Below are positions 4,388 through 63,625 of a stretch of 64,000 nt of DNA, piece by piece; position 1 is the first letter of the stretch, and the number at the start of each line of letters is the position of its first letter. The stretch is from a virus (taxonomy: Duplodnaviria > Heunggongvirae > Uroviricota > Caudoviricetes), in IMG/VR virus record IMGVR_UViG_3300044259_000172. One strand, 5' to 3'. Below the pieces are notes generated by a model. It ran no database searches, was not told where the DNA came from, and worked only from the letters and a program-made list of their open reading frames with translations. Both the position numbers and the translations under genes were made by a program.

Positions 4388-4496
4388 TAAGAAACAAGCT
4401 TTAGCTTGATCGTGAAACGATAATCTAAAACAATTTAGATTGTTTTGTTTCATCACTTTCAGTGATCCTCAAGCTAAAGCTTGCGGTTTCTTTTAA
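4388..4496. repeat. composite palindromic element in divergent intergenic region: outer inverted repeat AAGAAACAAGCTTTAGCTTG ... CAAGCTAAAGCTTGcggTTTCTT enclosing palindromes ATCGTGAAACGAT, ATCTAAAACAATTTAGAT and ATCACTTTCAGTGAT
   Basis: read directly; first ~35 bp recur at 63560. Confidence 0.6.
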
Positions 4497-4724
4497 TATA
4501 GATTTTAAGATTTCCTTTAAAATATTATACACCGGTCCTAGAATGTTGTACACAAAATAATGACAATTATTTCATAATTTCATTCAATTTGTCTCTCAAT
4601 GTATCAATAATATCTTTCGATTCACCTTTTATAATTGCATCAAGTTTTTCATATCGAACTCTTTGACTTTGCTAAAATTATTATACAAAATAAATCTCCT
4701 AAAGTAAACACTAATAAATAAAGA

Positions 4725-5168
4725 ATGAGTGGAAGACGGACATATCAAGGACAATATTATCCAATAAATGAATCGAAATATATTGGAGATCCTACAAAAA
4801 TAGTTTATAGATCATCATGGGAACTTCTCTTTTCAAAGTTTTTGGATTTTAATTCAAATGTAAAATTTTGGTCTTCAGAAGAAATTGTAATTCCTTATTA
4901 TTTTCCTTTAGACGGAAAAATGCATAGATATTTTCCAGATTATTGGGTAGAATTTCATAATGGGAAAAAGGTCATTATTGAGATAAAGCCTTATAATGAA
5001 ACTATAGAACCTGTCCTTAAAAAGGGAGGAAACAAAAGAGTTTTTGCGGATAGAATGGCAACATATTTAAAAAATAAAGCAAAATGGGAAGCTGCGAAAG
5101 AATTCTGTAAAGACCGAGGATGGGAATTTCATGTTTTTGATGAGCATTATTTAAAAAGATTGAAATAA
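4725..5168 (+). CDS. hypothetical protein with PD-(D/E)xK-like motif (FPDYW...VIIEIKP)
   Basis: plus-strand ORF after strand switch; D...E-x-K spacing consistent with restriction-endonuclease-like fold (weak). Confidence 0.45.
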   Translation: MSGRRTYQGQYYPINESKYIGDPTKIVYRSSWELLFSKFLDFNSNVKFWSSEEIVIPYYFPLDGKMHRYFPDYWVEFHNGKKVIIEIKPYNETIEPVLKKGGNKRVFADRMATYLKNKAKWEAAKEFCKDRGWEFHVFDEHYLKRLK

Positions 5169-17423: not shown

Positions 17424-18566
17424 TCAATGATGTACATACGTAGGATTTAAAAATTCAAAATAATTCTTTATATCCTCATAATTTAATTCATAATCAAATT
17501 TACACCACAATTGTTCCATTGCTTTAATCACTTCCCCTAATTCCTTTGAAGGTTTCAGATTGAAATCTTCCATAACCCTCTCAGCCTTCACAGGAGACGG
17601 ATTTTTAGGAAGATGAAAGTAACCAAACATCCTAAAATCGATAGTCCTGGCAATGTCATACATGATAGGACCATATTTAAATAAGATATAATTTGGATGC
17701 TCAGTTGTAGTTTCCAAAATATCAATCAATTCCAAAGTTTTATTTTCTACTTTAGACAATTTGAGATTTCGAATTTGATTCTTCGAAAGCCCCATAGAAT
17801 AAAGAGTCAGAACTGGATGATCTGGAAAATGAATCATTTTTTCATAATTCAACTCTTTCCCAAAAATTTCTTTAGAAACTCCTGTATAATTCATATGATG
17901 AAAAATCAATTTGTTTAATTTATTCAATTTCATCGAATTCATTTTCCAAATTTCTGAATGGATTCTTTCTTTGGAAATCATAGACAAAGATTTTGAATGT
18001 TTTGAAATGATATCCAAAACATCTTGGTCGATTTTAAAATCTTGATATTTCACACAAAATCTGAAAAATCTAAGAATGCGAAGATAATCTTCCTGGATAC
18101 GGTCTTCTGGATTTCCAATAAAGACTACCTTTTTATTCTGAAGATCTTGAATTCCTCCAAAATAATCATAGATATTTCCTTCAGAATCCATAGAAAGAGC
18201 ATTAAATGTAAAATCTCTACGAGAAGCATCAACCTCCCAATCTTCAACAAATCTCACTTCTGCGTGGCGGCCATCTGTTTCAACATCCGCTCGAAGAGTA
18301 GTGATTTCAAATGATTCATCATTAAAGGTAACAGTAACTGTTCCATGTTGAAGCCCTGTAGGAGCAAAGGACAATCCCACTGCTTCCGCAATATCCTTAA
18401 TATTGTCAGGAAAGGCTGTCGTGGCAATATCAATATCATTTACAATTGTTCCGGAAATTGCATCCCTTACACAACCTCCTACCAATCTGGCTTGATAACC
18501 AAAATGATTAATCAATTTTAAAATTGAGATCGCATTTTTGAAATTTTCAGGAATTTCGATTTTCAT
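17424..18566 (-). CDS. cca: tRNA nucleotidyltransferase (CCA-adding enzyme / poly(A) polymerase head-domain family); start revised to ATG 18566
   Basis: LVGGCVRDAISG...DIDIATTA motif (GGxVRD...DxD); RBS AGGA before ATG 18566; a hairpin lies inside the ORF-track N-terminal extension. Confidence 0.75.
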   Translation of the reverse strand: MKIEIPENFKNAISILKLINHFGYQARLVGGCVRDAISGTIVNDIDIATTAFPDNIKDIAEAVGLSFAPTGLQHGTVTVTFNDESFEITTLRADVETDGRHAEVRFVEDWEVDASRRDFTFNALSMDSEGNIYDYFGGIQDLQNKKVVFIGNPEDRIQEDYLRILRFFRFCVKYQDFKIDQDVLDIISKHSKSLSMISKERIHSEIWKMNSMKLNKLNKLIFHHMNYTGVSKEIFGKELNYEKMIHFPDHPVLTLYSMGLSKNQIRNLKLSKVENKTLELIDILETTTEHPNYILFKYGPIMYDIARTIDFRMFGYFHLPKNPSPVKAERVMEDFNLKPSKELGEVIKAMEQLWCKFDYELNYEDIKNYFEFLNPTYVHH

Positions 18567-18634
18567 GGGATATTTTCCTATTTTAGAAATGATTATGGGT
18601 TCAGTATATACTGAACCCATTTCTCTGTACATAT

Positions 18635-18853
18635 TTAAATCAAAAAATTTATGAAAGCTAATGATGTAATATATGATTGGATAATACACATTATAAAGAT
18701 TAATACGTAAATTACTTGCACTATTAGATTTTTTTCATCTAATTCAATTTGTTTCGAAACGTATTTTGACACAACATTTGCAATAGCACAGGAATAACAA
18801 ATTATATAGACGACTAAAAGGATACTTATTATATAATGAGCCGCTGTGATCAT
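18635..18853 (-). CDS. possible small hydrophobic membrane protein (72 aa)
   Basis: ORF track; two hydrophobic stretches; could be artefact. Confidence 0.3.
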   Translation of the reverse strand: MITAAHYIISILLVVYIICYSCAIANVVSKYVSKQIELDEKNLIVQVIYVLIFIMCIIQSYITSLAFINFLI

Positions 18854-27512: not shown

Positions 27513-27607
27513 TTGGCTGAAGAGGATGGGCTTGAACCATCAATCGAGGTTAACAGCAACGACTTGTCTCTTGTATCGTATCTAGAATAATACAATTACA
27601 CTCTTCA
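27513..27607 (-). ncRNA. tRNA-like element (94 nt) with a ~20-nt insertion; perfect 7-bp acceptor stem (tgaagag/ctcttca), discriminator G, encoded CCA and canonical T-arm (gatgg-TTCAAGC-ccatc); possible tRNA pseudogene or atypical tRNA
   Basis: minus-sense TGAAGAGtgtaattgtattattctagatacgatacaagagacaagtcgttgctgttaacctcgattGATGGTTCAAGCCCATCCTCTTCAgCCA; D and anticodon arms not resolvable. Confidence 0.3.
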
Positions 27608-27613
27608 AATATT

Positions 27614-27689
27614 GGTGTGCCCTGTCAGGCTTGAACTGACGACCCTCTGCTTAAAAGGCAGATGCTCTAACCAACTGAGCTAAGGGCAC
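27614..27689 (-). tRNA. tRNA-Lys (anticodon UUU), CCA encoded
   Basis: minus-sense GTGCCCTtaGCTCAGTTGGTTAGAGCatCTGCCTTTTAAGCAGAgggtcGTCAGTTCAAGCCTGACAGGGCACaCCA: 7-bp acceptor, D-arm, anticodon loop CUUUUAA, T-arm all canonical. Confidence 0.8.
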
Positions 27690-27971: not shown

Positions 27972-28001
27972 AATATAGTCTATTTAAGAGGAATTGTAAA
28001 C
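27972..28001 (-). promoter_or_regulatory. T4-early-like promoter (GTTTACA-17-TATATT)
   Basis: minus-sense gttGTTTACAattcctcttaaatagacTATATTaaatc. Confidence 0.5.
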
Positions 28002-28009
28002 AACAGAAT

Positions 28010-28192
28010 TCAATCTTTTTCATTATTTTCTGGAAAATGAATATCAAATGGAGAAAATTCTAATTCCATACTTTTCATCTTAGAACTCACTTTATCAGCA
28101 AATTCTTGTAATTTTGGCAAATCGGATTTCTTTGATTTGCCAAAAAGATTCATCATATGAATTCTATCTCTATAAGATAAATTATCAGACAT
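28010..28192 (-). CDS. hypothetical protein (start revised to ATG 28192, 8-bp overlap with upstream stop)
   Basis: ORF-track start 28258 overlaps HD-domain gene by 74 bp. Confidence 0.4.
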   Translation of the reverse strand: MSDNLSYRDRIHMMNLFGKSKKSDLPKLQEFADKVSSKMKSMELEFSPFDIHFPENNEKD

Positions 28193-28844
28193 TTTTAAAT
28201 CTCTCCTGGTAATATCGATTGATATTCTTAATTGCCTTTTCAGACAATTCTTTTCCATTCTTAAAAGACTTAAATGGAACTAATTCAGGACGATTAACTA
28301 ATTGACCGATAAACTTTTTTCGAACTTTGTCAATAGCTTCCTGAGAAAATTGAGTCTTCCATTCTTTTTCAATGTTTTCATTTGTACGAAGAAACTTTTC
28401 ATAAGGATCTGCGAATGATAACAAATCAAGATCTAACAAAACTTGGCATGCAAATTTTTGATCTTCATTTTCCATTTTTTCCATAATAGGATTTTCAACA
28501 AGAAAATGATATTGAGTTGCTAAAATGAGATTAGACACGAAAAATGAATCAGAGGTAAGAGCCCAAATATAATCTTCTCCATGTTTATGAAGTTCATAAA
28601 ATTGAGCAGATTTTTCTTCATTTGTTCTGTGCATATTAGGCATCACATCATAAATAATATCATGATATAAAATTGCCTCGATCAAGAGCTTTTGCTCTTT
28701 CATAAAGATATCTTTTACAAAATTTCCCGAATGTAAATTAGATTTGAAATCAGACAACATCCTTAGAATGTGATCTTTGTTATGATAAAACCTATGAGGT
28801 TCTTCATATCTTTGAAAAATTTCGGTAATATTAATTTGTGTCAT
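28185..28844 (-). CDS. HD-domain metal-dependent phosphohydrolase-like protein
   Basis: YHNKDHILRM ... LYHDIIYD (H...HD motifs of HD superfamily). Confidence 0.5.
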   Translation of the reverse strand: MTQINITEIFQRYEEPHRFYHNKDHILRMLSDFKSNLHSGNFVKDIFMKEQKLLIEAILYHDIIYDVMPNMHRTNEEKSAQFYELHKHGEDYIWALTSDSFFVSNLILATQYHFLVENPIMEKMENEDQKFACQVLLDLDLLSFADPYEKFLRTNENIEKEWKTQFSQEAIDKVRKKFIGQLVNRPELVPFKSFKNGKELSEKAIKNINRYYQERFKNV

Positions 28845-29145
28845 TTTCTTCCTTTTCCAAAAATTTAAATTGAGAATAATCTCTATACATTCTAGTTTCA
28901 GTATCAGAATTTAGAAAATATTTCCCATTCTTGGAATAAACCATACAAAGAAATAGAATATTATAAGAAGAACTCATATCTTTATGGATATCAATTGATT
29001 CAATTTTAGCTTGATATCCCGAATATTTTCCCTTTGTAATTTCTACAATTTTGTGGAGATATTTCTTATTAAGCTCATTCTGTCTATTTGACAAATAAAC
29101 CTGAAGCTTTTTCCTATAATCTAAAAATTCTTCAATTTCATTCAA
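28831..29145 (-). CDS. hypothetical protein (104 aa)
   Basis: ORF track. Confidence 0.45.
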   Translation of the reverse strand: MNEIEEFLDYRKKLQVYLSNRQNELNKKYLHKIVEITKGKYSGYQAKIESIDIHKDMSSSYNILFLCMVYSKNGKYFLNSDTETRMYRDYSQFKFLEKEENDTN

Positions 29146-29524
29146 AATCTTTATTCCTTTTCATCAACAAATATTGACTAAGATATTTTTCAATATTTTC
29201 TTTTCCTACAGGATTCTGAGAATGAACATAAAATTTAAAATCATCTGCCAAGATATTAAAATCAATATCAACATCTACCAAAGATTTTGCAATAGATAAT
29301 CCATTTTCAGAATCTTGTCCTAAATCATGATCAAAAGAAATATAAGAAATCTTTTCAAAATCTCCTATAAGATCGAAATATGATTTCCATAGTGTCTTGA
29401 TTATTGGATTTTGAGACTTAATAAATGTATTGAACAAATAAAGGGCATCAGAAGAATTTCTAATTATAACATCAAATTTATCATTTTCAGATGGATCACG
29501 TTCATCATCAATAAAAATTTTCAT
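29138..29524 (-). CDS. hypothetical protein (128 aa)
   Basis: ORF track. Confidence 0.45.
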   Translation of the reverse strand: MKIFIDDERDPSENDKFDVIIRNSSDALYLFNTFIKSQNPIIKTLWKSYFDLIGDFEKISYISFDHDLGQDSENGLSIAKSLVDVDIDFNILADDFKFYVHSQNPVGKENIEKYLSQYLLMKRNKDFE

Positions 29525-29760
29525 TACACAAATTCTCCTTTACAAATTTTCAAGATTTCTCTAGAAGAAACTACATTAACTCTAGAATCTTCAAGGATTT
29601 CCTTGAGTCTTCTTTTAGGAATATCATAATGATTATATACAGATTTATGAAACCAACATTTCTTGATTTCTAAATCTTTAGCCATTTCATGTAGATTTTC
29701 TTCCGAATATGGAATACAAACCAAATGTCTTGAAACATCAGCAAAATATCTCATACCCAT
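29524..29760 (-). CDS. DUF4031-like protein
   Basis: HLVCIPYSEENLHEMAKDLEIKKCWFHKSVYNHYDIPKRRLKEI matches the CHL..D...ELH.FA..LG....WF......HYD...KR pattern of DUF4031. Confidence 0.5.
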   Translation of the reverse strand: MGMRYFADVSRHLVCIPYSEENLHEMAKDLEIKKCWFHKSVYNHYDIPKRRLKEILEDSRVNVVSSREILKICKGEFV

Positions 29761-29936
29761 TCTCCAATCTCTACAAGAGTATCAGAATTATGTTGAAAAT
29801 TTACTTTTGTTCTAGGGAGTTTTTTCCCATCAGAAAGAGTAATAGATTTTGTATTCTCAGAAACCACTTCTAAATGGGTTTCATTGAGCATCCAAACTTT
29901 TTTACCTAAGAGTGAACTTCCGTGAATCTTTTTCAT
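29751..29936 (-). CDS. hypothetical protein (61 aa)
   Basis: ORF track. Confidence 0.4.
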   Translation of the reverse strand: MKKIHGSSLLGKKVWMLNETHLEVVSENTKSITLSDGKKLPRTKVNFQHNSDTLVEIGEWV

Positions 29937-29975
29937 ATAATTTTTATATCAAAATAATTCGCGGAAGTAAATAGA

Positions 29976-30129
29976 TTAAATCTTAATTTTGTAAATTATT
30001 TCATAATATGGAGAGTTTTCAAAATTATAACGATTGACTGCAATAATTACGGCCCCAGAATCTTCAAGTTCTTCTAGATAGCTCAACATATCCTTCAATT
30101 TCAATTGACCAATTCGATCATATTTCATA
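29976..30129 (-). CDS. small hypothetical protein (50 aa, MKYDRIGQLKLKDMLSYLEELEDSGAVIIAVNRYNFENSPYYEIIYKIKI)
   Basis: hand translation; fills gap between neighbouring genes. Confidence 0.35.
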
Positions 30130-30140
30130 GATTTAAATCC

Positions 30141-30662
30141 TTAAAGGTATGAGAAATCTGATGTCAATTCTTTTGCATCGGGACCAAATGCAAACATTCC
30201 TGTTGTAACATCATAAGCCTTGAAAATCAAGGATCCATCCTTTAGATGGTATTCAGGATCAATGACTTCTTTTGCGATACAAGCCAATTGATCAGAAAGA
30301 GCTATCGCTTCTTTAATCTTTGCATAAGATGCCTTTTTGACATAAACTGTACCGAAACCTTGAGGAGTTTCTTTTTTCCACTTGAGATATTCGGAAGAAA
30401 GAAATTGATTAATCCCCGAAGAAATGAATTTTTCAAATGTTTCATGAAAAACAGAAGTTGCGTGTGAAGCCTGGGCAGCTGCCCTGCCTTTAGTCATAGA
30501 CAAAGGCAAATCGTCTCGAACAACAATGTATAGACGACTCAATTTTTCATCTGAAGATACCAACATTTCATTTAATTGAAACTTTTCAGATGATTTTTGG
30601 GGAGGAATTCCTCCCCAAAAACTTTTTTCGATAAATGTATTTGCTTTCATATTCATATTCAT
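30141..30662 (-). CDS. peptidyl-tRNA hydrolase PTH2-family protein
   Basis: YIVVRDDLPLSMTKGRAAAQASHATS matches the PTH2 core (vvRtDL.M.kGKiaAQcsHAa). Confidence 0.55.
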   Translation of the reverse strand: MNMNMKANTFIEKSFWGGIPPQKSSEKFQLNEMLVSSDEKLSRLYIVVRDDLPLSMTKGRAAAQASHATSVFHETFEKFISSGINQFLSSEYLKWKKETPQGFGTVYVKKASYAKIKEAIALSDQLACIAKEVIDPEYHLKDGSLIFKAYDVTTGMFAFGPDAKELTSDFSYL

Positions 30663-30880
30663 TCAGAATCTTCTTCCACTAGGATAATTTCTTCATTGAG
30701 CGCTCCTGCAATTTTTGCAAAAGCAATTCGATAGGCTGCAACTTCATAAAAATCTTCTGCTTCTTCTGTAAGAAAGCGAGCAACCTCTTTTCCATTTACA
30801 ATGAAAAAGGTTTTATAATTTGCTGTAGAGATAATCTTAAACATTTTATATTTCCCTTTTATTTTAAAAATCCATATCAC
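30659..30880 (-). CDS. hypothetical protein (73 aa)
   Basis: ORF track. Confidence 0.45.
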   Translation of the reverse strand: MIWIFKIKGKYKMFKIISTANYKTFFIVNGKEVARFLTEEAEDFYEVAAYRIAFAKIAGALNEEIILVEEDSE

Positions 30881-30904
30881 TGAATTTTAAGATATAGATT
30901 TTTA

Positions 30905-31165
30905 AAATGTCGGTGAGAGGAACACCTCCCTAACGCTGCCGACCCAACATCATTGTTTTATATCTAGTTGTATATCTTATCTAGCTGTATATGTCTTAAA
31001 ATTTCAAGAACTTAGAGCATGATAAAATCTCCTTTTGATAGAGTTTGTTCATGTATATTAAATTTTATTCGTCGTATATCATCTATGTAAAATAATTAGA
31101 AAAAGAAATTAGAGCATGATAAAATCTCCTTTTAATTTATTTAAGCTTTTACTCTCTATCAGAGC
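30905..31165 (-). ncRNA. candidate non-coding or leader RNA: from T4-early-like promoter (~31166-31200) to GC-rich terminator hairpin (30908-30946); contains two copies of a 25-nt SD+AUG-CUC-UAA minigene
   Basis: promoter-like GTTTACA-18-TATATT on minus strand; hairpin gucgg...ggagg-uguu-ccucuc-a-ccgac followed by UUUU; no ORF longer than 2 codons behind the SD. Confidence 0.3.
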
Positions 31166-31217
31166 TTGTTTACATTTTGAATATACGCTATTCAACACAA
31201 AATGTAAACAACAAAAT

Positions 31218-31487
31218 TCACTTTTTTGAAATTTTTTTCAGATTGAATTTTGAAGGAATTCCAATCACTTGATTTGGATAATTGTTGGCTTTCAAAAATG
31301 TCTTTAATTTAATCAAAATTTGTTCAGGATTTTTTTCTGTATCTGGATATTCTAAAACTAAAATGGTATCAGGATTAAGATCTAAAAATAATATCTTAAA
31401 CGGATGAGGTTCATTCTCAGGTGCAATCGTTTCCCTTTTAATAGGGGTATTGATGAATTTAAAAAATGCTCCTATAAATTCTTTCAT
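31218..31487 (-). CDS. hypothetical protein (89 aa)
   Basis: ORF track. Confidence 0.45.
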   Translation of the reverse strand: MKEFIGAFFKFINTPIKRETIAPENEPHPFKILFLDLNPDTILVLEYPDTEKNPEQILIKLKTFLKANNYPNQVIGIPSKFNLKKISKK

Positions 31488-31552
31488 GATATAATCTCCA
31501 AATACAAAGAAGGGCCAATGGCCCTTCTAATTTATATGAAGCTATATATTAT

Positions 31553-55213: not shown

Positions 55214-55247
55214 TTGATCTTGATTTCCTTTATTTTATAAATAGTTT

Positions 55248-56150
55248 ATGATCAATAAAATTTTTGAAGTGGAACATAATCCACATTATATCAATCGTTA
55301 CTTGAAGTTTATTAATTCTATCAAAGAATTAGGTGAAAGAACACATTTAATTACAGAAAAACATCATATATTACCAAGTAAATTATGGCCAGAATTTAAA
55401 AATCTTAGACAAAATAAATGGAATATGGTTAAACTTACTTATAGAGAACATTTTATCGCTCATCTTATTTTATTTAAGTGTTTTTGTGGAAATAGAAAAA
55501 TTAAAATGCTTCAAGCTCTAAATTTTATGATGAAGCATTCCAAAAAATCAAGTGTTTATCAAATCAAAAGAACTGAGTGGTTTCTCAAATTCGGTAAAGG
55601 AGAAAATCATCCTAATTTTGGAAATACTCATTCTCCTGAAACTCGGAATAAAATATCTGAATTTAGAAAAAATTTTACAGGTTGGAAACATTCCAAGGAA
55701 ACAAAATCTAAAATATCAAATACTAAAACTGGTAAACTTCGCTCAGAAGAAACTAAAAAGAAAATATCGGAATCACATATAGGTAAAATACTTTCAAGTG
55801 AAACAAAAGAAAAAATATCGAAAACTACAACAGGGAAAATTGTTTCTGAAGAAACAAAAGCCAAAATGTCAGAATCTCGAAAAGGAGAAAAACATCCTCT
55901 TTTCGGAAAAACTCATTCTGATGAAACCAGAAAGAAAATGTCAGAATCCCATAAAGGAGAAACCTCGCCAATGCGCGGAAAAACTCATTCTGATGAAACC
56001 AGAAAGAAAATGTCAGAAGCCCATAAAGGAGAAAAACATCCAATGTTTGGAAAGCCTCGATCTGAGGAAACAAAGGCCAAAATATCAGAATCCAAAAAAG
56101 GAAAGCTTCGCGGGCCTTATAAAAAGAAAAATCCGCGAATCCTGATTTAA
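55248..56150 (+). CDS. free-standing HNH homing endonuclease with about 8 tandem NUMOD3 DNA-binding repeats
   Basis: N-terminal HNH_3-like EKHHILPSKLW...NMVKLTYREHFIAH; repeats GKTHSDETRKKMSESHKGE...; only plus-strand gene in the replication module. Confidence 0.75.
   Translation: MINKIFEVEHNPHYINRYLKFINSIKELGERTHLITEKHHILPSKLWPEFKNLRQNKWNMVKLTYREHFIAHLILFKCFCGNRKIKMLQALNFMMKHSKKSSVYQIKRTEWFLKFGKGENHPNFGNTHSPETRNKISEFRKNFTGWKHSKETKSKISNTKTGKLRSEETKKKISESHIGKILSSETKEKISKTTTGKIVSEETKAKMSESRKGEKHPLFGKTHSDETRKKMSESHKGETSPMRGKTHSDETRKKMSEAHKGEKHPMFGKPRSEETKAKISESKKGKLRGPYKKKNPRILI
55860..56050 (+). repeat. near-perfect ~60-bp tandem nucleotide repeat inside the endonuclease gene (NUMOD3 units)
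   Basis: ggaaaaactcattctgatgaaaccagaaagaaaatgtcagaa(t/g)cccataaaggagaaa occurs twice. Confidence 0.7.
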
Positions 56151-63341: not shown

Positions 63342-63556
63342 TTTATTATTATTTACTCCTGTAGGACTTTGTAATATTATTTATCTTTTGTGGCGAGATA
63401 AAGTATATGATATTAACAATTGTTAATTTTACAAAAATAACATACTACTGGATTAAATTTCATAATTTATTAAATTTCGTGCATTATTTTGTGTACAACA
63501 TTCTAGGACCGGTGTATAATATTTTAAAGGAAATCTTAAAATCTATATTAAAAGAA

Positions 63557-63625
63557 ACAAGCTTTAGCTTGTATCGTGAAACGATTAATCTAGATTATAT
63601 CTAGATAATAAAACTAATCATCATT
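63557..63625. repeat. second copy of the three-palindrome element (CAAGCTTTAGCTTG, ATCGTGAAACGAT, AATCTAGAT-tat-ATCTAGAT)
   Basis: about 35 bp near-identical to 4388-4425. Confidence 0.6.

Follow-up and report, generated by a model that had tools for sequence, protein, structure and literature searches.

A possible cis-acting leader with duplicated two-codon minigenes ahead of an early operon in a divergent T4-type phage

Results and discussion

The largest true non-coding gap (373 bp) in a tightly packed 64-kb stretch of viral DNA (IMG/VR record IMGVR_UViG_3300044259_000172; the whole stretch is referred to below as the window) was analysed computationally, following up an earlier reading of the same letters (the original prediction). 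On its minus strand the gap carries two nearly identical translation initiation regions, each of which opens a reading frame of only two codons, AUG-CUC-UAA. Our favoured reading, held tentatively and with rather more doubt than confidence, is that the gap forms the approximately 330-nt 5' leader of an early operon, in which the two minigenes would capture ribosomes and act in cis. Judged from the sequence, the locus is real, statistically unusual and outside any described family, and it would best be placed as a variation on the minigene and upstream open reading frame (ORF) leader theme. The window has a GC content of approximately 30%, with genes almost all on the minus strand, and by its protein set the source is an orphan, very divergent T4-type myophage.

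Twin initiation regions with a two-codon frame

The two modules, A (31103-31136) and B (31006-31039), are minus-strand copies of a 34-nt repeat with identity at 32 of 34 positions; no other non-coding direct repeat in the window is as exact. Each reads ATTAAAAGGAGATTTTATC ATG CTC TAA TTTCTT, with differences between the copies at -17 and +10, and each consists of a Shine-Dalgarno (SD) sequence (AAAGGAG), a 7-nt spacer, and the codons ATG (31117-31115 in A, 31020-31018 in B), CTC (31114-31112 and 31017-31015, respectively) and TAA (31111-31109 and 31014-31012, respectively). Within the repeat, a 25-mer (AAAAGGAGATTTTATCATGCTCTAA) is present in exactly two minus-strand copies, at 31012-31036 and 31109-31133; no third copy was found when up to three mismatches were allowed, and none was expected by chance (none in 100 shuffles). 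Both copies of the 25-mer had been pointed out in the original prediction, in which the interval given for the second copy was shifted by one base. Relative to the AUG, the 34-nt block spans -19 to +15, which is approximately the stretch of mRNA contacted by an initiating ribosome. Pairing of the module SD with the 16S tail amounted to -8.9 kcal/mol, compared with a median of -3.7 and a best value of -8.8 kcal/mol for the 101 called minus-strand genes. The earlier claim of a strong SD was thus borne out, the modules being complete initiation regions in which the SD surpasses that of every called gene.

RNA structure local to the two start sites was weak and differed between the copies, and both initiation sites should therefore be accessible; hairpins masking the SD around the minigenes were rejected on the same grounds. 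By reading of the sequence, the other frames at the modules stop within about 10 codons, and since every frame closes early the modules are not remnants of a disrupted longer gene, so that a frameshifted or bypassed longer ORF was likewise rejected. Unrelated sequence separates the copies, which lie at a distance of 97 nt, and their flanks are not significantly alike (alignment of upstream flanks, p = 0.14), which makes the 34-mer a sharply bounded element; it is either an old duplication under selection or a short patch that was recently copied or converted.

Each module has the SD, start codon, single sense codon and stop of a two-codon minigene. In a start-stop site, by comparison, the start codon is followed immediately by a stop (10.1101/520783). 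The original prediction offered a start-stop leader as one possibility, but in each module CTC separates ATG from TAA, so that start-stop sites in the sense of Meydan et al. were rejected in favour of two-codon minigenes of the lambda bar type. A mini-array of clustered regularly interspaced short palindromic repeats (CRISPR), for which repeats of 28-37 nt, spacers of approximately 26-50 nt and a resemblance to known repeat families were expected, was also rejected, because the 34-nt repeat is combined with a 63-nt spacer and matched no CRISPR direct-repeat model, as was a type III antitoxin (ToxI-like) array, because the copies are not arranged head-to-tail in tandem.

An early promoter within an inverted repeat

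A minus-strand motif, GTTTACA-N17-18-TAnnnT, often with an upstream TG, recurs ahead of at least eight genes in the window, approximately 30-50 nt before the SD and ATG. A position weight matrix (PWM) for early promoters was built from eight other sites of this form, with the candidate upstream of module A (P1; 31180-31211, minus strand) held out, and both strands of the window were scored. P1 (-35 (G)TTTACA at 31209/31208-31203, a 17-nt spacer, and -10 TATATT at 31185-31180) scored 22.5 bits and ranked sixth among all positions on both strands in the 64 kb, while the member sites scored 21.5-29.2 bits and the next non-training site 17.8 bits. In a generic sigma-70 scan P1 gave 10 of 12 matches. 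P1 is a member of the early-promoter class of this phage, and the held-out score substantiated the GTTTACA-type minus-strand promoter of the original prediction; its transcription start would lie near 31173. A second candidate promoter, P2 (31062-31091, minus strand; TTTACA, an 18-nt spacer and TAAAAT), which the original prediction did not contain, is located between the repeat copies and is sigma-70-like, also with 10 of 12 matches in the generic scan. Module A sits 62 nt past P1 and module B 41 nt past P2, distances comparable to the 30-50 nt typical of the class.

P1 is spanned by a perfect 14-bp inverted repeat (31166-31211), with arms TTGTTTACATTTTG (31166-31179) and CAAAATGTAAACAA (31198-31211) separated by 18 nt; a perfect inverted repeat of that length was found in 0.3% of random 110-nt segments. 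A promoter palindrome had been described before, with a length of 12 bp instead of the 14 bp measured here. Read on the minus strand, the left arm covers the -35 of P1 and the right arm the start of the P1 transcript, and as read-through RNA the palindrome folds at -14.1 kcal/mol (z-score -2.7). Perfect inverted repeats were observed at three of nine early promoters (31209, 28001 and 22081, with 14, 14 and 11 bp, respectively), while only 3% of random segments contain one of at least 11 bp. All three place one arm within the promoter and its partner within transcribed DNA. The arms differ in sequence from promoter to promoter without any relationship, which speaks against an operator for a common protein and favours a hairpin specific to read-through RNA. 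At the other two promoters (28001-27940 and 22081-22015, minus strand) the spacer of the promoter contains the left arm, and the SD of the following gene forms the right arm; there, read-through RNA would mask the ribosome-binding site and promoter-proximal RNA would not. Given that promoter-spanning repeats occur elsewhere in the phage, the P1 palindrome should also act at the RNA level, and as its distal arm contains no SD the hairpin may simply cap upstream mRNA. Most simply, it would be an RNA hairpin limited to transcripts reading through from the upstream gene.

In T4, the genes e, soc, 49 and I-TevI have a promoter embedded in a hairpin, by which the initiation region is masked in RNA that reads through from upstream. 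P1 and the promoters at 28001 and 22081 resemble these genes in that an inverted repeat spans the promoter and only upstream-initiated RNA would form the hairpin. The repeats at 28001 and 22081 match T4 further by having the SD in the distal arm, which the distal arm at P1 does not; the embedded T4 promoters are late, whereas those found here are early-type.

The putative leader and the operon that follows

Apart from the minigenes the gap is devoid of ORFs of at least 40 amino acids, in line with the earlier statement that it holds no real ORF, and its GC content is 27% overall and 23% once the GC-rich hairpin is excluded. Rfam 15 returned nothing at the gathering score (best E-value 0.85, to unrelated microRNA models), and neither ARAGORN nor the Rfam tRNA model found a tRNA or transfer-messenger RNA (tmRNA) in the gap, the only match being tRNA-Lys at 27613-27689; a known RNA family, tRNA or tmRNA was rejected on this basis. 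T4-type late promoters (TATAAATA) are present in the window, and a late promoter in the gap was rejected because none occurs there. The leader as a whole folds better than shuffled sequences (z-score -3.4).

Downstream of module B lies a GC-rich structured element (30908-30946, minus strand) followed by AUUUU. Its GC content is 62%, and only two 39-nt stretches in the 64 kb are this GC-rich. Two competing folds were found, of which the first consists of two adjacent hairpins (-16.3 kcal/mol) and the second, less stable, of a nested stem, in which GUCGG/CCGAC encloses GGGAGG-UGUU-CCUCUC, directly adjoining the U's (-13.7 kcal/mol). The hairpin is trailed by only four U's (AUUUUAAAAAUC), fewer than the run of at least five directly after a GC-rich stem by which an intrinsic terminator was defined, and for want of U's the terminator scan did not call it. 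The GC-rich stem-loop followed by U's that had been proposed is present, but with two folds and four U's it would be a weak terminator at best. As for attenuation, the alternative folds are there, 65 nt past the stop of minigene B, and no pairing linking the element to the minigene was found. An AU-rich hairpin (30861-30908, minus strand; 18 bp with a 12-nt loop), which is an addition to the features listed originally, stops 2 nt short of the SD region belonging to the gene that follows; it has 94% complementarity and folds at -19.1 kcal/mol (z-score -6.8), and none of 200 shuffles folded as well.

The first gene past the leader (30659-30844, minus strand) encodes a 61-amino acid orphan protein of no known family, and its stop overlaps (ATGA) the start of a gene (30141-30662, minus strand) for a PTH2-like peptidyl-tRNA hydrolase. 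The latter protein matched Pfam PF01981 with 32.7 bits (cut-off 23), and its motif R.D...M..GRA.AQ.SHATS was invariant in seven of seven aligned sequences. Genes for a DUF4031 protein, a cREC_REC (cyclic-phosphate-processing) protein and a phosphohydrolase come next, followed by the early promoter at 28001 and tRNA-Lys. The genes at 28185-30844, together with tRNA-Lys(UUU) and, further on (17424-18689), a CCA-adding enzyme, look like a tRNA/RNA-repair or counter-defence set. On its upstream side, the gap is bordered by a gene for an 89-amino acid protein without an assigned function (31218-31487, minus strand), ahead of which a canonical terminator hairpin is located at 31508-31528. No early-class promoter was found between P1 (31209) and 28001, which leaves P1 as the sole strong one upstream of the next nine genes, and the scan called no minus-strand terminator between 30844 and 27400. 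The operon thus has P1 as its obvious early promoter, and consequently the GC-rich element should be leaky or regulated and not a tight stop; on both counts, a leader open to read-through is a better fit than a closed RNA of 250 nt.

The gap also contains a cluster of ATATAC(A) motifs (30961-31079), with four direct minus-strand copies (plus-strand GTATAT at 30970, 30987, 31053 and 31074). Tandem 15-mers (TATCTAGYTGTATAT; 30961-30975 and 30978-30992) hold two of the motifs, two copies flank the -10 of P2, and a fifth copy, inverted, lies inside the -10 of P1 (31181-31186). Five of the 30 GTATAT/ATATAC copies in the window thus fall within 340 bp, against a mean of 0.16, and 0.2% of segments reach five; the enrichment at the locus is approximately thirty-fold, and the GTATAT iterons that had been reported are real in this respect. 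The spacings are irregular (17, 66 and 21 nt) and the core comprises 6-7 nt.

Two side observations concern the genes downstream. A perfect GC-rich palindrome (GGGGAGGAATTCCTCCCC core; 30594-30621) lies within the first 25 codons of the PTH2-like ORF, in an N-terminal extension that is absent from all six homologues, and on the plus strand it is scored as a terminator; the gene may in truth start further downstream. Directly after tRNA-Lys, an unannotated tRNA-like gene (27516-27606, minus strand) escaped both ARAGORN and the Rfam tRNA model. Its T-arm (GAUGG-UUCAAGC-CCAUC) is perfect, its acceptor stem comprises 7-8 bp, the GCCA end is encoded and a CUGUUAA loop is present; the D region is aberrant and long.

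A proposed ribosome-mediated leader

In the favoured reading, host RNA polymerase would initiate at P1 and produce a leader with two ribosome-binding sites of maximal strength, each opening AUG-CUC-UAA. Ribosomes would load at these sites, produce fMet-Leu at most and terminate immediately, and the modules would thereby serve as ribosome traps. The bound ribosomes could shield the very AU-rich leader and set, in cis, the amount of RNA that reaches the operon, through an effect on stability or on read-through. The GC-rich element would switch between a terminator-like and a non-terminator fold, and the 18-bp AU-rich hairpin, situated just before the first real ribosome-binding site, might serve for processing or stabilisation. 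If the action in cis is true, the locus would represent a compact ribosome-mediated leader control in a T4-type phage.

Related arrangements are known from bacteria and from a phage. In STAB-SD of Bacillus thuringiensis cryIIIA and in the polypurine stabiliser of SP82, the latter in phage early RNA, an SD in the leader holds a ribosome and protects the RNA downstream. By analogy, the proposed modules would resemble such ribosome-dependent 5' stabilisers in that a leader SD with a non-coding use guards the RNA; the stabilisers differ in needing no start codon, and they were described in hosts with the 5'-to-3' exonuclease RNase J. Bacterial start-stops and very short upstream ORFs (yecJ and hslR in Escherichia coli) are similar to the locus in having a ribosome-binding site without a useful peptide, and start-stop sites have been proposed to tune the expression of nearby ORFs via ribosome occupancy (10.1101/520783). 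In contrast to the start-stops, which lie inside genes, the sites described here contain one intervening sense codon, are located in a 5' leader, are duplicated and have the strongest SD in the region.

Several observations weigh against the leader reading. Two bound ribosomes would span only approximately 70 of the 330 nt, and 25 straight identical bases exceed what generic ribosome binding needs; the 25-base identity may instead stem from gene conversion, from a duplication in the recent past or from a specific factor recognising the sequence. Nor does the leader reading account for the ATATAC cluster or for the tandem repeats spaced 17 nt apart. P2 fails the phage-specific PWM (below 10 bits and outside the top 30) and is no more than a generic consensus match. 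The other contigs carrying the locus are all 100% identical and give no conservation or covariation signal, and no minigene was found upstream of the few other phage PTH2-like loci.

Alternative explanations

One alternative, which we regard as unlikely, is that the modules are lambda bar-type minigenes acting in trans: drop-off of fMet-Leu-tRNA(Leu) would load the host peptidyl-tRNA hydrolase (Pth) and tie up tRNA-Leu, while the phage PTH2-like enzyme, on the same transcript, would recycle the tRNA, the whole being a takeover or timing module. The lambda barI and barII sequences are AUG-AUA-stop. Lambda bar and the locus share a phage two-codon ORF in more than one copy, early transcription (predicted here from P1), and a single sense codon that is a minor one (CUC accounts for 5.6% of Leu codons in the phage), and in both a link to peptidyl-tRNA hydrolase is a natural question (PMC2490762). 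Expression of such minigenes causes peptidyl-tRNA accumulation and inhibition, which are relieved by Pth overproduction (PMC2490762), and the very strong SD, the two copies, the early promoter and the position of the PTH2-family gene, second downstream, are consistent with a mechanism of this kind. Unlike lambda bar, to which it has no sequence relationship, the locus uses Leu CUC in place of Ile AUA, has a far stronger SD and a promoter-like site for each copy, and belongs to a phage that itself encodes a PTH2-type hydrolase. CUU, the most used Leu codon of the phage, is normally read by the same tRNA as CUC, so that starving that tRNA would harm the phage, and selective tRNA starvation was rejected for this reason. 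UAA-U is moreover an efficient stop context, which disfavours drop-off. The lack of upstream minigenes at the other phage PTH2-like loci counts against action in trans as well, the RNA-repair-type genes, tRNA-Lys and CCA-adding enzyme nearby explain the PTH2-like gene without any minigene, and the proximity of minigene and hydrolase was noticed after the fact.

The purpose of the bar-type minigenes has been open for decades because their effects were seen only in Pth-defective hosts. The present locus is a cleaner natural case, in which the region devotes its strongest ribosome-binding sites to a duplicated Met-Leu-stop ORF with an early promoter, and in which the minigenes head an operon for RNA-repair-type proteins and a homologue of peptidyl-tRNA hydrolase. 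Were the modules to work together with the hydrolase, drop-off would be used on purpose.

The modules could also be a non-functional scar, an explanation that we consider doubtful, in which gene starts left over from duplication or deletion in a hyperplastic early region would be transcribed and have no role. Such remnants do arise: a generic search of metagenomes for paired SD-ATG-NNN-TAA sites returned 11 loci, which were coding repeats or satellites, and in one of them (L009; Ga0187770_10267405, 159-434) the 5' end of a gene is present as three tandem copies of 92 nt; the first two, which are truncated, read AAGGAGG-N7-ATG TTG TAA, and the third is the true start of a membrane-protein-like ORF. 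This shows a natural route by which Met-Leu-stop minigenes can arise by duplication. T4-type early regions are known for cassette shuffling, and in a phage without relatives selection cannot be demonstrated. On the other hand, no intact parent gene with the initiation region of the modules was found in the window or in neighbouring contigs, and the unlike flanks do not agree with a tandem duplication that is both simple and recent. Identity at 32 of 34 positions implies selection if the duplication is old, and the module SD, the strongest in the window, also counts against a scar.

A free early small RNA of approximately 150-270 nt, extending from P1 or P2 to the GC-rich hairpin and acting in trans, is quite unlikely. 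It might be a sponge for 30S subunits or for an RNA-binding protein, or might pair through the 25-mer. The promoter, the lack of a real ORF, the GC-rich hairpin with its trailing U's and the folding of the whole leader relative to shuffles could all be accommodated, and the full-length identity of the 25-mer suggests sequence-specific recognition. However, the uncalled terminator with its four U's is weak, a closed RNA would leave the downstream genes without an early promoter, Rfam contains no matching family, and neither the 25-mer nor its complement was found elsewhere in the window or in an extra 6.5 kb.

Little credence is likewise given to a DNA element, either an origin like T4 oriE or an operator array at which a phage protein binding the palindrome and the ATATAC motifs would shut off P1 and P2. 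Such an element would explain the locally enriched ATATAC cluster with its tandem pair, and the two copies flanking the -10 of P2, the perfect 14-bp palindrome over the -35 and +1 of P1 and the 23% GC of the gap without the hairpin are in its favour. Strand bias is unchanged at the locus, which speaks against an origin, although T4-type origins need not alter strand composition. With an early-mode promoter beside short direct repeats in a non-coding stretch, the locus is comparable to T4 oriE, but the repeats of oriE are evenly spaced, 12 nt long and not accompanied by minigenes (PMC3016281). Those found here, with a 6-7-nt core, irregular spacing and one 15-nt tandem pair, are not iterons of that kind. 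The unrelated inverted repeats at the two other promoters argue against a common operator, and a DNA element leaves the perfect ribosome-binding site within the repeat unexplained.

It is improbable that the minigenes and the PTH2-like enzyme form one unit, in which the minigenes would cause an early flood of fMet-Leu-tRNA, or their occupancy would provide a read-out of tRNA and translation status, and in which the phage would then control recovery, or induce its tRNA-repair operon, by means of its own hydrolase. Were such a unit real, it would be the first natural adaptive viral use of programmed peptidyl-tRNA drop-off.

Finally, a plus-strand reading, in which the repeat would be the shared MIKSPF... 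start of 23- and 37-amino acid ORFs (31019-31090 and 31116-31229, both beginning within the repeat) or a promoter of the extended -10 kind for an antisense RNA (TGaTAAAAT; plus-strand match TAGAAA-17-TAAAAT at 31097-31125, preceded by TG), is most improbable, because neither ATG is preceded by an SD on direct reading of the sequence (for which reason the small ORFs were rejected), the candidate -10 lies downstream of the ATGs and could not express them, copy B offers no -35 for it, the neighbouring genes all run on the minus strand, and the perfect SD, optimal spacer, ATG and stop of the minus-strand reading are a far less likely coincidence.

The phage and its relatives

The T4-type markers in the window include a family-B DNA polymerase (PHROG 262), a gp46/SbcC-like protein, a DnaB-like helicase, a gp44/gp62-like clamp loader and sigma-70 region 2 (gp55-like) proteins, and the window also encodes a CCA-adding enzyme and tRNA-Lys(UUU). 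For the DNA polymerase, the nearest phage records, at approximately 35% identity, belong to cyanophages and Rhizobium phages. Among the flanking proteins, the best non-self identities were 59% (SPFH) and 42% (PTH2-like), and no non-self homologue of the 61-amino acid protein was found in the searches. At the DNA level, the locus had no match among 50,697 phage records (megablast and blastn), exact and degenerate minigene patterns had none in IMG/VR or GTDB genomes, and the core of the GC-rich hairpin had none in the genomes searched. In Joint Genome Institute (JGI) metagenomes, searched only by the flanking SPFH protein and the generic tandem-minigene pattern, no related locus was detected, and no collection searched yielded an alignable relative.

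Two distant relatives, L001 and L004, have GC contents of 41% and 55%, respectively, and are not alignable with the window; both have tRNA clusters close to the SPFH gene, and neither has minigenes. In L004, a tRNA-like mini-structure (4931-4976; acceptor stem and T-arm) is located 24 nt upstream of the PTH2-like gene, after a strong promoter, and matched the mascRNA-menRNA model with E = 0.027, below the gathering score; no counterpart was found in the window.

Two further features of the window were recorded. A 95-nt inverted repeat with 92% identity (4486-4580 and 63464-63558) encloses approximately 59 kb of minus-strand genes, each of its arms holds a promoter-like TTGTGTACAAC...TGTATAAT, and independent Logan assemblies are interrupted within both arms; it may mark a segment that inverts or recombines, or no more than a hazard of assembly. 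Between the gp62-like and DNA polymerase genes, a plus-strand gene (55248-56150) encodes a protein with four NUMOD3 motifs derived from 72-nt repeats. A late promoter (TATAAATA) is located at 55236, and the gene, on the strand opposite to these two neighbours, is probably a homing-endonuclease-type insertion.

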